From a virus (lineage: Duplodnaviria > Heunggongvirae > Uroviricota > Caudoviricetes), in the IMG/VR virus record IMGVR_UViG_2623620492_000013: 31,403 nt of DNA. One strand, written 5' to 3'. Made by a program: the position numbers and the translations under genes. The number at the start of each line of letters is the position of its first letter. The stretch's first letter is position 1. This document shows, one piece after another, positions 5,825-10,946 of this stretch. Below the pieces are notes generated by a model that ran no database searches, was not told the origin of the DNA, and worked only from the letters and a program-made list of their open reading frames with translations.

Positions 5825-6282
5825 GCCGGTTAACAGCAATCATCTGTGCTTTCGTTATATGTCTGCTGGTCTCCATGGACTGGGCGATTAACCATTACCG
5901 CGAAAACGCCATCACCTACAAAGAACAGCGCGATAAAGCCACTGAGAAACTCAGCCTGGCTAACGCCACCATAAAAGACATGCAGACCCGCCAGCGAGAG
6001 GTGGCTGCACTGGATGCCAAATACACCGGAGAACTGGCTGATGCGAAAGAAACCATTGAGCGTCTGCATAGCGATGTCATTGCTGGCCGTAAGCGGCTGC
6101 AGCTCAACGCAAACTGTCCCGCGAACGGAACGGCCGGCGCCAGCAGCATGGGCGATGCTTCCGGCCCCCGACTTACTGACTCCGCTGAACGGGATTATTT
6201 CACCCTCAGAGAGCGAATCGTCACAGTGACGAAGCAGGTCGGCTATCTGCAGGACTACATCAAAGAGCAATGTATTGAGTGA
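5821..6282 (+). CDS. Rz: i-spanin Rz
   Basis: N-terminal transmembrane segment then coiled-coil region; follows the endolysin; contains an embedded out-of-frame lipoprotein ORF. Confidence 0.85.
6044..6229 (+). CDS. Rz1: o-spanin Rz1 (lipoprotein embedded in Rz, +1 frame)
   Basis: [20 protein letters not shown] has a lipobox; Pro-rich mature part; lies wholly inside Rz. Confidence 0.8.
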
Positions 6283-6345
6283 TTTGGCTTTCAATAATTT
6301 GGGAATGTGCAATATATTAACCACCAAAACTATATGGAGGTTAAT

Positions 6346-7029
6346 ATGTCTGCTTGGGAGTGTCCTTTTTGCGGTAGGTTGGCTGTTTATGATTCAATGC
6401 AGAAAAAACGTGATAGCTTCTCAGTTTCTGGGGATACCAAGTTTGGAGTCCTCGTTTTCGAGTCTTTCGTAAACATCTGCCCAAACCCAGAATGCAAAGA
6501 ATTTACATACATTACAACGATGTCTACAGGAAAATATCAGGCCGGTTACTATATACCTGATGATCTCCTAGAGACGTGGGTTAACAGGCCTAACGGAATT
6601 TTTAAACAGTTTCCTGATTATGTGCCGAAGCCGATTTTAGATGACTATAAAGAGGCGGTCTTAATCAAAAACCTTTCACCTAAAGCTTCTGCAACTTTGT
6701 CACGCAGGTGTCTTCAAGGAATGATTAGGAGCGTCTGGAATGTTAAGCCCGCGAGACTTGTTGACGAAATAAAAGCCATCGAGGGGCAGATTGAATCGAA
6801 TGTTTGGAAAGCAATCGATGCCGTAAGGAATATTGGCAACATTGGCGCTCATATGGAAAATGATATCAATATCATTGTTGATGTCGATCCAGACGAAGCT
6901 GAGATGCTGATAGGCCTCCTCGAGCTTCTGATTCAAGAGTGGTATGTTGAAAAGCATGAAAGGCAACTACGAATTGACGCCATTACCGCTTTAGCGGCTG
7001 AGAAAAAAGCATTAAAACAAACAAAATAA
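6346..7029 (+). CDS. Zinc-ribbon plus DUF4145-like domain protein (candidate defence/abortive-infection moron)
   Basis: Strong RBS (GGAGG) before ATG 6346. N-terminal CPFC...CPNPEC zinc ribbon. C-terminal VRNIGNIGAHMEND...EAEMLIGLLELLIQEWY matches the DUF4145 pattern as recalled. Gene is AT-rich relative to its neighbours and has its own terminator. Confidence 0.6.
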   Translation: MSAWECPFCGRLAVYDSMQKKRDSFSVSGDTKFGVLVFESFVNICPNPECKEFTYITTMSTGKYQAGYYIPDDLLETWVNRPNGIFKQFPDYVPKPILDDYKEAVLIKNLSPKASATLSRRCLQGMIRSVWNVKPARLVDEIKAIEGQIESNVWKAIDAVRNIGNIGAHMENDINIIVDVDPDEAEMLIGLLELLIQEWYVEKHERQLRIDAITALAAEKKALKQTK

Positions 7030-7052
7030 ACCGCCTACGGGCGGTTTTTTGT
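7028..7052 (+). terminator. Intrinsic terminator
   Basis: ccgcc-tacg-ggcgg hairpin followed by tttttt. Confidence 0.65.
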
Positions 7053-7116
7053 TGCCATCACCATGGGGTAGCCCATCGTAATGGCAATATCCACATAAGC
7101 GGATAGAGAGGCCTCA

Positions 7117-7320
7117 ATGTCCGACACCTACCAAATCACTATCACCACTACATCGAAAGATACGTTCACTGGCACGATGAATCGAAGCCAGCCTGAAATC
7201 GTTAATGGGTTCGTGGCATTGGCTACCGACACGGGTGAATGGCGTTACTTTCGGCCGGACAGCGTGGAGCAGTTCCACTTTGTACCAGTGTTAGAAGAAA
7301 AAGCATCAGAGGACGCTTAG
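7117..7320 (+). CDS. Hypothetical small protein (67 aa)
   Basis: Stand-alone ORF in the AT-rich moron island. Confidence 0.45.
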   Translation: MSDTYQITITTTSKDTFTGTMNRSQPEIVNGFVALATDTGEWRYFRPDSVEQFHFVPVLEEKASEDA

Positions 7321-7343
7321 TTGCCGCCCCCTGATGGGATTTG

Positions 7344-7517
7344 TTACTGATCTACCATTACACTATGAATAGTAAGGCCGTTCTTATCTTTGAAAACCAC
7401 CGTTAAAGGCAATTCTTTGTCTTGTTCTGGGTTCCCTGTTTTGAGAGAGAGGACATCAATTTTCAATTCATAATTCCCAGTACTGATAAGCATTTTTGCG
7501 AAGTCTTCGAGTGTCAT
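7344..7517 (-). CDS. Hypothetical small protein (57 aa)
   Basis: Reverse-strand ORF with AGGAGG RBS before the ATG at 7517 (MTLEDF...). Convergent with the 67-aa gene and divergent from terS. Confidence 0.5.
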   Translation of the reverse strand: MTLEDFAKMLISTGNYELKIDVLSLKTGNPEQDKELPLTVVFKDKNGLTIHSVMVDQ

Positions 7518-7575
7518 TATTCCTCCTGTTAAAACCATATTATCGGGAAGTGGCACATAACCTTTAAGGAAATAT

Positions 7576-8013
7576 ATGGCGACCAAACAAAAAACTGGCC
7601 GCCCTTCTGATTATTTACCAGAGGTGGCTGCTGACATCTGCTCACTGCTTGCCGATGGGGAAAGCCTGCGCAAAGTTTGTGATCGACCAGGGATGCCTAA
7701 CAAGGCGACGGTGTTCCGCTGGCTGGCGCAGCATGCAGAGTTTCGCGACCAATACGCGAAAGCCACTGAGACACGCGCTGATGCGATTTTCGAAGATATG
7801 TTCGATATTGCTGACGGTGTGAATGAAGAGGCTGCCGCAGTAGCTAAAGCACGTCTTCGCATTGACACGCGAAAATGGGCCCTGGCCCGCATGAACCCGA
7901 AGAAGTACGGCGACAAAGTCAGCCAGGAAATCGACCACAAATCATCTGACGGAACCATGACCCCAAAGCCAACAATCATCCAGCTACTACCTGTTGAGCC
8001 AAAGCATGAGTAA
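7576..8013 (+). CDS. Terminase small subunit
   Basis: 145 aa with N-terminal HTH-like region, immediately upstream of and overlapping terL. Confidence 0.8.
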   Translation: MATKQKTGRPSDYLPEVAADICSLLADGESLRKVCDRPGMPNKATVFRWLAQHAEFRDQYAKATETRADAIFEDMFDIADGVNEEAAAVAKARLRIDTRKWALARMNPKKYGDKVSQEIDHKSSDGTMTPKPTIIQLLPVEPKHE

Positions 8014-9253
8014 CGCCGTTCAACTGCCGATCCCCGCCAAGCTTGCACCACTGTTCACCGCCGTGAATAAGCGTTACCGGTGCTCTCACGGCGGACGCGG
8101 TAGCGCCAAGACGCGCACATTTGCGCTGATGACTGCAGTTAAGGCGTATCAGTCGATGATGAACGGTGAAAGCGGCGTAGTGCTCTGTGCGCGTGAATTC
8201 ATGAACTCGCTGGAAGAGTCGAGTATGCAGGAGGTGAAACAGGCGATCCTGTCTGTACCGTGGCTGGCTTCCAACTTTGATATCGGCGAGAAGTACATCC
8301 GCACCATCGACAAGAGCGTTAACTACGTGTTCTGCGGTCTGCGGCATAACCTCGACAGCATCAAGTCGAAAGCGCGCATCCTGCTGTGCTGGGTTGATGA
8401 AGCGGAATCAGTCAGCGAAATTGCCTGGCAGAAGCTGAGCCCGACCGTTCGTGAAGAGGGGTCAGAGATTTGGGTGACGTGGAACCCGGAGCGAGACGGT
8501 AGCGCCACGGATAAGCGTTTCCGCAAAGAGGCAGGCGACGACTGCATCACCGTTGAAATGAACTATACGGATAACCCGTGGTTCCCTGATGTGCTGGAAG
8601 GCGAGCGACAGAACGATCAGCGCCGCCTCGACCCGGCAACATACGCATGGGTGTGGGAAGGGGCTTATCTCGAAAACTCCGATAAGCAGGTACTGGCCGG
8701 GAAATACCGGATTGCTGAGTTCTCGGACCAACTATGGAAAGAGGCCGAACGTCTGTTCTTCGGTGCTGACTTCGGTTTCGCCAAAGACCCTAACACGTTG
8801 GTGCGTTCGTTCATCCTGCATAACCGGCTGTACATCGAATACGAGGCATACGGTCAGCAAACTGAGCTCGACCACATGCCAAAGCTGTACGACACGATTC
8901 CAGGTGCGCGTGACTGGCCCATTAAAGCCGACTCCGCTCGACCCGAGACGATCAGCTATCTAAAGCGGCAGGGCTTCAACATCTCAGCCGCTGAGAAATG
9001 GCAAGGAAGCGTTGAGGACGGGATCGCACACCTTCGCGGATTCGACGAAATCATTATCCATCCGCGCTGCAAGAATGTGGCGCGAGAGGCCCGCATGTGG
9101 TCGTACAAAACAGACCGCATTACTGGCGAGGTGCTGCCGAAACTGGCCGACGGCTATGAACACTGCTGGGACGGTATCCGCTACAGCCTAGACGGGCACA
9201 TTAAGCGTAAAGGCCAGATGGCCGGGATGATGATCCCAAAACGGCTGCGATAA
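8006..9253 (+). CDS. Terminase large subunit
   Basis: Walker A-like GGRGSAKT near the N-terminus and a C-terminal nuclease-like region; about 416 aa. Confidence 0.9.
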   Translation: MSNAVQLPIPAKLAPLFTAVNKRYRCSHGGRGSAKTRTFALMTAVKAYQSMMNGESGVVLCAREFMNSLEESSMQEVKQAILSVPWLASNFDIGEKYIRTIDKSVNYVFCGLRHNLDSIKSKARILLCWVDEAESVSEIAWQKLSPTVREEGSEIWVTWNPERDGSATDKRFRKEAGDDCITVEMNYTDNPWFPDVLEGERQNDQRRLDPATYAWVWEGAYLENSDKQVLAGKYRIAEFSDQLWKEAERLFFGADFGFAKDPNTLVRSFILHNRLYIEYEAYGQQTELDHMPKLYDTIPGARDWPIKADSARPETISYLKRQGFNISAAEKWQGSVEDGIAHLRGFDEIIIHPRCKNVAREARMWSYKTDRITGEVLPKLADGYEHCWDGIRYSLDGHIKRKGQMAGMMIPKRLR

Positions 9254-9312: not shown

Positions 9313-9546
9313 ATGCATAGCTTTGAGCACTTGGTTGCAGAAATAAGAGAAGAGTTAAGGCTTAGAGGGCTTGAGCATTCATCGCTAATTTTTACTAAGC
9401 TTGCTCAGCAATACGCCCCTTACTATCAATCATTCGAACCTGAAAGAAAAGAGGCGTTACTGCTAAAGCTTAAGGCGCTTGAGAGAAGCGTGGGGCTACA
9501 GAAACCATTTGATTGGGAATCAGCCCTCTCAACGAAAAAAGAATAG
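9313..9546 (+). CDS. Hypothetical small protein (77 aa, moron)
   Basis: Own RBS (GGAGG) and own terminator; lies between terL and portal. Confidence 0.45.
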   Translation: MHSFEHLVAEIREELRLRGLEHSSLIFTKLAQQYAPYYQSFEPERKEALLLKLKALERSVGLQKPFDWESALSTKKE

Positions 9547-9568
9547 GTCGCTCAGGCGGCCTTTTTTA
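9546..9568 (+). terminator. Intrinsic terminator
   Basis: ggtcgc-tcag-gcggcc hairpin followed by a T-run. Confidence 0.5.
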
Positions 9569-9596
9569 TTGCCATAAATCCACCACCGGACAATCC

Positions 9597-10946
9597 ATGA
9601 ATGACAAATTAACTCTCGCCGTCAACCATGCGTTGAACGATGCGCGGATGGCTCGCGCCCGTATGGGGCTGATGGCGCCTACAATGGGGCTGGACAACAA
9701 GCGCCACTCTGCATGGTGCGAGTATGGATTCCCTGAGCAGGTAACCTACGAAAACCTTTATGCCCTGTACCGACGCGGTGGTATTGCCCACGGCGCAGTA
9801 GAGAAACTGGTGGGCAAGTGCTGGCAGACTAACCCGGAAATCATCGAGGGTGATCAGGCAGACAAAAAGCGCAAAGAAACCGCCTGGGAGAAAAAGGCCA
9901 AACAGGTATTCACCAACCGATTCTGGCGCTCATTCTCTGAGGCCGATCGCCGTCGTCTGGTGGGCCGTTATGCTGGCATCCTTCTGCACGTCCGCGATGA
10001 AAAAGACTGGAACCTTCCGGTAACCAAAGGGCGAGGTCTTCAGAAAATATCGGTGGCGTGGGCAGGATCGCTTACGGTGAGCGAGTGGGACACTGGCCTG
10101 AACTCGAAGACGTACGGCCAGCCTCAGATGTGGCAGTACGCCGAACGCTTGCCGAATGGTTCAAGTCGCCGCGTCAATATCCACCCCGATCGCGTTTTCA
10201 TCCTTGGTGATTACTCAGACGATGCTATTGGCTTCCTTGAGCCAGCTTATAACGCCTTTGTAAGCCTGGAGAAGGTAGAGGGTGGATCCGGCGAGTCATT
10301 CCTGAAGAACGCCGCGCGCCAGCTTAATGTCAACTTTGAGAAGGAAATCGACTTCAACAATCTTGCGTCACTTTATGGCGTGAGCATTGACGAGTTGCAG
10401 GATAAGTTTAACGAAGTTGCCGGGGAAATGAACCGTGGCAACGATGTTTTGATGACAACCCAAGGGGCCACGGTCACACCGCTGGTGACTGCTGTAGCTG
10501 ATCCTTCAGCGACCTATAACGTCAACCTGCAAACGGCTGCCGCCGGTGTTGATATCCCGACGCGCATTCTGGTTGGTAATCAGCAGGCCGAGCGCTCCAG
10601 CACCGAAGACCAGAAATACTTTAATGCTCGTTGTCAGTCGCGACGCGTAGACCTCTCTTTCGAAATAGAGGACTTCTGCGACAAGCTTATCGATCTACAA
10701 ATCGTAGACTCAGTCAGTCAGAAGGCTGTTATCTGGGATGACCTTAACGAACAGACCGGTACTGAGAAGCTCACTAACGCCAAGACCATGGGCGAAATTA
10801 ACCAGACCATGCAGGGCAGCGGCGAAGAGCCAGCGTTCAGCCGTGAAGAGATTCGTACAGCTGCGGGTTATGACAATGACGACGAAGAGCCGTTAGGAGA
10901 AGAGGATGGCGACGAACAAGACGAAGCCACCAATTCTACCGCGTAA
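9597..10946 (+). CDS. Portal protein
   Basis: About 450 aa between terL and the head-morphogenesis gene, with an acidic C-terminal tail. Confidence 0.8.
   Translation: MNDKLTLAVNHALNDARMARARMGLMAPTMGLDNKRHSAWCEYGFPEQVTYENLYALYRRGGIAHGAVEKLVGKCWQTNPEIIEGDQADKKRKETAWEKKAKQVFTNRFWRSFSEADRRRLVGRYAGILLHVRDEKDWNLPVTKGRGLQKISVAWAGSLTVSEWDTGLNSKTYGQPQMWQYAERLPNGSSRRVNIHPDRVFILGDYSDDAIGFLEPAYNAFVSLEKVEGGSGESFLKNAARQLNVNFEKEIDFNNLASLYGVSIDELQDKFNEVAGEMNRGNDVLMTTQGATVTPLVTAVADPSATYNVNLQTAAAGVDIPTRILVGNQQAERSSTEDQKYFNARCQSRRVDLSFEIEDFCDKLIDLQIVDSVSQKAVIWDDLNEQTGTEKLTNAKTMGEINQTMQGSGEEPAFSREEIRTAAGYDNDDEEPLGEEDGDEQDEATNSTA

Follow-up and report, generated by a model that had tools for sequence, protein, structure and literature searches.

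Two small convergent ORFs, p67 (67 aa) and p57 (57 aa), lie directly upstream of the packaging genes of a lambdoid E. coli/Enterobacter prophage. In the reading that we consider clearly the most probable, p67 is a conserved late gene, while p57 is a classical moron, inserted between p67 and the small terminase gene terS as a transcription unit of its own and perhaps protective of the lysogen. Both ORFs are part of a stretch of 31,403 nucleotides of viral DNA, hereafter the window. The gene set that surrounds them (NinG, Q, holin, lysozyme, Rz, terS, terL and portal) is that of a lambdoid prophage. The genes concerned are the following:

7117-7320, + strand: p67, an ORF of 67 aa read from the sequence, with an ATG start and a TAG stop at 7318-7320
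7344-7517, - strand: p57, an ORF of 57 aa, with its ATG at 7517-7515 and a TAA stop at 7346-7344
7527..7522, - strand: Shine-Dalgarno AGGAGG of p57, 4 nt 5' of the ATG and invariant across the aligned alleles
7576..8013, + strand: terS, an Sf6-type small terminase (Pfam Sf6_terminase, 6e-45), right-hand border of the slot that holds p57

The limits and strands that the initial annotation gave for the two ORFs, the AGGAGG of p57 and the 23 bp between the converging stops (7321-7343) proved to be exact. Both ORFs are also called as CDS for hypothetical proteins by PGAP in E. coli 20A24 (WP_061351783.1 and WP_155404554.1), and the segment 6250-8100 was found at 100% identity in 3 of 5,426 complete E. 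coli genomes. The pair had been described as AT-rich, which holds for p57 (37.4% GC) but not for p67, whose 49.5% is near the values of its flanks (52.7% for terS and 51.9% for the whole window).

Coding evidence and protein families of p57 and p67

Since ORFs as short as these arise by chance, coding was tested against a divergent allele, the reference being the most divergent one, L003 from Enterobacter sp. BNK-18. For p57, this comparison yielded a dS of 0.75, a dN of 0.16 and a dN/dS of 0.21, with 36 substitutions, of which 9, 5 and 22 fall at the first, second and third codon positions of the minus frame (binomial P = 6e-4). As for p67, the dN/dS ratio is 0.09 and the 35 substitutions are distributed 6/4/25 over the codon positions (P = 5e-6). 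The replacements between p57 alleles are conservative, and no aligned allele alters the start codon, the Shine-Dalgarno or the stop. To judge from these substitution patterns, p57 and p67 are real protein-coding genes under purifying selection; a lack of conservation as coding sequences in related prophages, named beforehand as the outcome that would count against them, was not observed. An 80-aa reading of the reverse ORF, starting from TTG 7586, was discarded, its frame being broken in L003 by a 1-nt indel just upstream of the ATG. An Rfam scan of 6000-8300 found nothing in the region, the sole match being a chance-level miRNA.

At the protein level, p57 is an orphan. Neither its 57-aa nor its 80-aa reading matched any family at E <= 1 in Pfam, PHROGs, NCBIfam and PADLOC, and no known anti-phage defence model of PADLOC, Pfam or NCBIfam recognises it. 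A word-indexed homology search among 5.8 billion proteins returned only seven near-identical clusters, the most distant being 72% identical, and an exhaustive HMMER profile search of 1.84 billion representatives retrieved p57's own family only; short multi-stretch matches of the profile in giant repetitive proteins were treated as spurious. A tblastn search against 50,697 phage records gave no match at E <= 1, and the best PDB sequence match, AbiQ (E 0.37), was regarded as noise. The identical protein is present on more than 400 contigs of Enterobacteriaceae, and clinical genomes of Enterobacter, E. coli and Citrobacter commonly carry p57. With a mass of 6.4 kDa and a pI of 4.8, p57 is an acidic, soluble protein without hydrophobic segment; its AF2 model is compact (pLDDT 82), with no fold that could be assigned. 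The dsRBD or HicA-like alpha-beta-beta-beta(-alpha) fold was among the closest systems considered; HicA itself was dropped at an hhalign probability of 1%, and the combination of sequence or profile similarity with a significant fold match that would place p57 among the HicA or dsRBD-fold toxins was not found.

Concerning p67, a full-length match was obtained to PHROG 6581 (E = 2.8e-27, residues 1-64 on profile positions 1-64 of 66), a family without assigned function. Its relatives form 78 clusters at 90% identity in a large protein database and account for more than 534 matches in IMG/VR, with distant ones in cultured Enterobacter, Erwinia, Cronobacter and Hafnia phages. In several cultured-phage records (CobraSix, vB_EhrS_49/59, Pocitis76), the relative of p67 is found at the very end of the record, which we read as a position just before terS. 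The family combines a conserved core of about 58 residues with a variable acidic tail, and p67 itself is soluble and acidic (pI 4.4).

The p67 product is predicted by its model to be a small SH3/Sm-like beta-barrel with a disordered acidic tail. The model was compared with the small barrels of this fold, i.e. the putative lipoprotein 3bdu_A, Hfq and YaeO/Rof. No sequence similarity links p67 to Hfq, Rof or 3bdu_A (Pfam, no match at E <= 1); unlike the 3bdu_A lipoprotein, p67 has no lipobox or signal peptide, and the predicted acidic disordered tail is an addition with respect to the known SH3/Sm-like barrels. A PDB sequence search with p67 returned nothing significant, and the SH3/Sm-like fold is too common to imply a function for it.

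Distribution of the two genes and the slot between p67 and terS

The distribution of the pair was analysed in 77 IMG/VR loci having a terS 88-100% identical to that of the window and sufficient upstream sequence. p67 was found upstream of terS in 62 of these relatives, and p57 in only four. In about 35 of the 77, p67 adjoins terS with a gap of about 7-25 bp; L119 and L121, for instance, have a 98.6% identical terS located 25 bp after p67. Taken together, the four occurrences of p57 and the direct contact of p67 with terS in about 35 loci make p57 a sporadic insertion between normally adjacent genes. In the comparison of related prophages that had been recommended as a check, p57 is polymorphic and missing from most phages with a near-identical terS. 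Two marks of a moron, extra DNA between genes adjacent in relatives and a composition that differs from the surroundings, are thus present in p57. As for the 15 relatives without p67, other ORFs of the reverse strand often precede terS there, among them an 81-aa membrane protein and a 65-aa lipoprotein-like ORF.

All loci with p57 share a constant order of p67, p57 (on the opposite strand), terS of the Sf6 type, terL and portal. The gene upstream of p67 varies among them (DUF4145, pRha, DUF2513 or a 74-aa ORF), as do the lysis cassettes, and the loci become homologous at the DNA level about 15 bp ahead of the p67 ATG. p67 also occurs next to several other, unrelated terminase types. There are two independent variable slots, Rz-p67 and p67-terS, with p67 standing between them.

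The content of the second slot was surveyed in 121 further loci with a p67 homologue, the next large forward ORF being located in 118 of them. The gap that separates it from p67 was classified as follows:

gap of at most 60 bp: 41 of 118 loci
gap filled to at least 60% by reverse-strand ORFs: 39 of 118 loci
gap filled to at least 60% by small forward ORFs: 17 of 118 loci

The slot is a hotspot: the reverse ORFs of the p67-terS gap belong to at least 20 unrelated families. In an Erwinia MAG (L057, 4202-6667), it holds a reverse-strand RnlA-family toxin of 357 aa, with Pfam RnlA domains at 1e-14 to 3e-31, and a downstream partner of 118 aa, the two being RnlA/RnlB-like. Enterobacter sp. ECC-219 (L038, 5082-7635) carries there a reverse-strand GtrA/GtrB/GtrC-like O-antigen modification operon, assigned by reading the sequences, and two weakly HEPN-like proteins are also among the cargo. 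Between loci of differing content, homology resumes exactly at the terS ATG. Of note, the p67 homologue of E. coli AST215 (L002, 5121-5913) is an annotated pseudogene with an internal stop, followed by a reverse-strand hypothetical gene of 171 aa and another terS type, i.e. the same architecture with a different cargo.

In the window, the first slot (Rz-p67) is filled by a forward-oriented gene with a terminator of its own:

6346..7029, + strand: DUF4145 / PD-T7-4-like cargo gene (Pfam DUF4145, 1.4e-9; PADLOC PD-T7-4, 1.3e-12; GC 41%), the start coordinate being that of the PGAP annotation
7028..7052, + strand: intrinsic terminator closing the DUF4145 unit, an 8-bp stem with 5 G-C pairs, then TTTTTTGTT (-14.3 kcal/mol, z -3.3)

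This gene, which ends in the strong terminator and is replaced by pRha, DUF2513 or the 74-aa gene in related loci, looks like a separate defence moron, outside the convergent pair. The terminator at 7028-7052 and about 60 bp after it are common to the window, L004, L010 and L017, despite the different genes upstream (DUF4145, DUF2513 and the 74-aa ORF), whereas the pRha-type loci have unrelated sequence at the position of 7028-7116. This shared cassette end (7028-7116) might be a recombination joint.

Other variable points were noticed in the vicinity. Between terL and portal, the window has a 77-aa ORF (9313-9546), and related loci hold ORFs of 57, 65, 77, 79 or 83 aa, or none at all; this position looks like a third small variable slot in the packaging/head module. 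The 449-aa protein encoded at 9513-10946 (L001 12348-13697) is named 'anti-CBASS protein Acb1 family protein' by PGAP; the same gene matches Pfam Phage_portal_3 in related loci and sits in the portal position, so that the Acb1 label may be a naming artefact or may denote a portal with an added domain. Finally, in L009/L014 (E. coli FDAARGOS_1277 and CREC_5), the prophage is broken by resolvase and beta-lactamase genes just upstream of a truncated holin, some 2.5-5 kb before p67, which points to a transposon that inserted into the late regulatory region. The intact Q-holin version is kept in the window, as in strain 20A24.

Transcription signals around p57

Two elements of the - strand flank p57, one on either side:

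7293..7336, - strand: terminator-like element of p57, formed by a 12-bp hairpin (7336..7304) and the U-rich tract downstream of it (7303..7293)
7539..7567, - strand: candidate sigma-70 promoter of p57, with -10 GATAAT (7544..7539), a 17-nt spacer and a weak -35 TTAAAG (7567..7562)

The hairpin starts 7 nt past the p57 stop codon and overlaps the 3' end of p67, the stop of which lies in the loop, while the 3' arm corresponds to the last five p67 codons. Its - strand fold has a free energy of -19.6 kcal/mol (z -3.6), and CUUUUUCUUCU comes after it. The same segment on the + strand reaches only -13.3 kcal/mol, because three G.U pairs turn into A.C mismatches, and no U-tract follows. With a weak fold and no U-tract on the + strand, the hairpin should stop the antisense transcripts but not the late ones. 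The terminator scan also calls a - strand terminator at 7318..7301.

The hairpin is conserved. Across five alleles, 95% of the cells are paired, vs. 38-57% in slid controls; two pairs are altered in both partners (A-U to G-C and C-G to U-A) and five in one only, via G.U. Covariation as such was not above that of shuffles (114/500), with five sequences only. L004 and L080 have a poor U-tract; with this reservation for the two alleles, p57 has its own terminator.

At the other end of p57, the -10 GATAAT is invariant while the spacer differs among alleles, and the candidate -35 TTAAAG matches the consensus at three of six positions. A consensus promoter scan gave no call in 7518-7575, candidate promoter included, because only three of six positions match at the -35. 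It did call a - strand site at 7637..7610, inside terS, its overall count being at chance level (4 sites found, 3.1 expected). From the sequence, p57 would have its own sigma-70 promoter at the GATAAT.

The initial annotation had placed in this interval a divergent promoter region shared with terS, a proposal that is not supported: the promoter scan found no + strand promoter-like site before terS, terS belongs to the Q-antiterminated late operon, and homology among the alternative slot contents starts exactly at the terS ATG. Another terminator-like hairpin of the - strand, with nine pairs and then AUAUAUUUCC, is located at 7578-7603, where it overlaps the first terS codons and immediately precedes the proposed p57 promoter. 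Its role could be to shield p57 from antisense transcription that originates in terS, unless the hairpin is due to chance.

Around p67, the promoter and terminator scan found no + strand promoter or terminator of its own. Having the orientation of the late operon and a GC content like that of the flanks, p67 displays neither the differing composition nor the transcription signals of a moron. It is read here as a conserved, possibly dispensable late gene, which forms the left border of the cargo slot and is not itself cargo.

Interpretation, alternatives and known systems

In the scheme that we propose, p67 would be the gene that many lambdoid prophages of Enterobacteriaceae have directly ahead of their packaging module, and p57 a horizontally acquired, AT-rich, self-contained unit that came to lie between p67 and terS. 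In the lysogen, where the late operon would be silent, p57 would be transcribed from its own sigma-70 promoter (-10 GATAAT, 7544-7539) and translated from the strong AGGAGG, its transcript ending at the strand-specific hairpin shared with the 3' end of p67. In the lytic cycle, late transcription antiterminated by Q would pass through the p57 unit in antisense, the hairpin being weak in that direction. The acidic, cytoplasmic p57 protein may then bind a partner to the benefit of the lysogen, for example by excluding or aborting superinfecting phages. A protective role is proposed because the known cargo of the p67-terS slot acts in this way. Most of the other cargo is uncharacterised, and 'protective' is for p57 a matter of guilt by location only; our best guess, of low confidence and drawn from location and from the other slot cargo, is a lysogen-expressed protective or host-modulating binder.

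The initial annotation had seen both genes as completing one moron island, and opposite-strand genes inside the late operon as typical of accessory cargo. The second description stands for p57, which is mostly absent, deviates in GC and occupies a variable slot of reverse genes; the first is not supported, p67 being present in 62 of the 77 terS relatives, similar to the flanks in GC and adjacent to several terminase types. An island of wider extent, in which p67, p57 and the DUF4145 gene would form one contiguous moron upstream of terS, was also weighed and appears unlikely. All three genes do lie between the lysis cassette and terS, p67 is not universal (absent from 15 of the 77 relatives) and no function is known for it from Pfam or PHROGs. 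However, its composition and orientation are those of the late operon, the scan found neither a promoter nor a + strand terminator belonging to it, and it is very strongly constrained (dN/dS 0.09). Moreover, p67 stays fixed while the gene upstream and the content downstream swap independently, and it is found beside several unrelated terminases and at the record end in cultured phages. A slighter chance is left to the idea that the reverse ORF is not a gene, 7344-7575 being an AT-rich non-coding spacer or regulatory region for terS (a leader, a packaging signal or a + strand RNA). The shortness of the ORF, its lack of any known family and its place directly before terS would suit such a region; its codon-periodic substitutions in the minus frame (9/5/22, dN/dS 0.21), conservative replacements, constant Shine-Dalgarno, ATG and stop, and compact AF2 model (pLDDT 82) would not. 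Rfam matches nothing in the region, and phages with a 97-99% identical terS are devoid of the whole segment, so that terS does not need it.

It is just as improbable that p57 and p67 form a functional pair (toxin-antitoxin or regulator-target), coupled by antisense RNA of convergent, 3'-overlapping transcripts. p57 was only ever seen next to p67, in every locus; its terminator lies inside the 3' end of p67, so that the two transcripts would overlap, and the p67 tail co-varies with the p57 allele. This adjacency, however, is explained by the fact that p67 usually borders the slot on the left, and p57 is missing from 58 of the 62 terS relatives with p67 and from more than 110 other p67 loci. No similarity to toxin or antitoxin families was found, the hhalign probability for HicA being 1%, and known type II toxin-antitoxin pairs are co-transcribed, not convergent.

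The reading of p57 as a moron next to a conserved late gene can be carried further, to p57 as the founding member of a new 57-aa family of lysogen-expressed anti-phage or host-modulating proteins, in a precisely bounded, reverse-oriented hotspot between p67 and terS. This extension is tentative, and we think it rather doubtful. Were it true, the at least 20 uncharacterised families of the slot could be mined for new defence or anti-defence systems. For annotation, the value of the analysis is to separate the conserved late gene p67 from the true cargo p57 and to define the cargo slot to the base in lambdoid prophages of Enterobacteriaceae, from the p67 stop on the left to the terS ATG on the right. 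With its protective or conversion genes (RnlA-like toxin, GtrABC) and its many uncharacterised families, the slot is a practical place to look for new prophage functions. None of this challenges the current view of phage genome organisation, p57 and p67 being an ordinary kind of prophage feature.

Among known systems, the bor gene of lambda is a reverse-oriented gene just downstream of Rz. Like bor, p57 is located inside or at the edge of the late operon and oriented against it. Compared with Bor, a lipoprotein, and with HK97 gp15, a membrane exclusion protein, it is an orphan cytoplasmic acidic protein of 57 aa.

Morons are characterised by a differing GC content and by their own promoter and terminator, which allows expression from repressed prophages (PMC3594210). 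As in the lambdoid morons of HK97 and HK022 described there, p57 is extra DNA of deviating GC between genes adjacent in relatives, with its own terminator and a candidate promoter (PMC3594210). Judged by its sequence, p57 has three features of a moron (insertion, composition and terminator), a promoter of its own being plausible.

The position is also a familiar one, since lambdoid phages mostly carry their defence genes upstream of the packaging module (PMC11364771), and the Tai systems of phi80-like phages occupy the same place, immediately upstream of terS (PMC11364771). As in prophage defence hotspots, the p67-terS cargo is highly variable and includes a defence toxin family (RnlA, in L057) and lysogenic-conversion genes (GtrABC, in L038), whereas p57 itself matches no PADLOC model; the P2/P4 hotspots provide a further comparison for the slot (PMC9122126). 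The region upstream of the packaging module is thus an already recognised location of morons and defence genes, and this kind of element is well known; what is new here is the orphan cargo family and the base-precise description of the slot that holds it.
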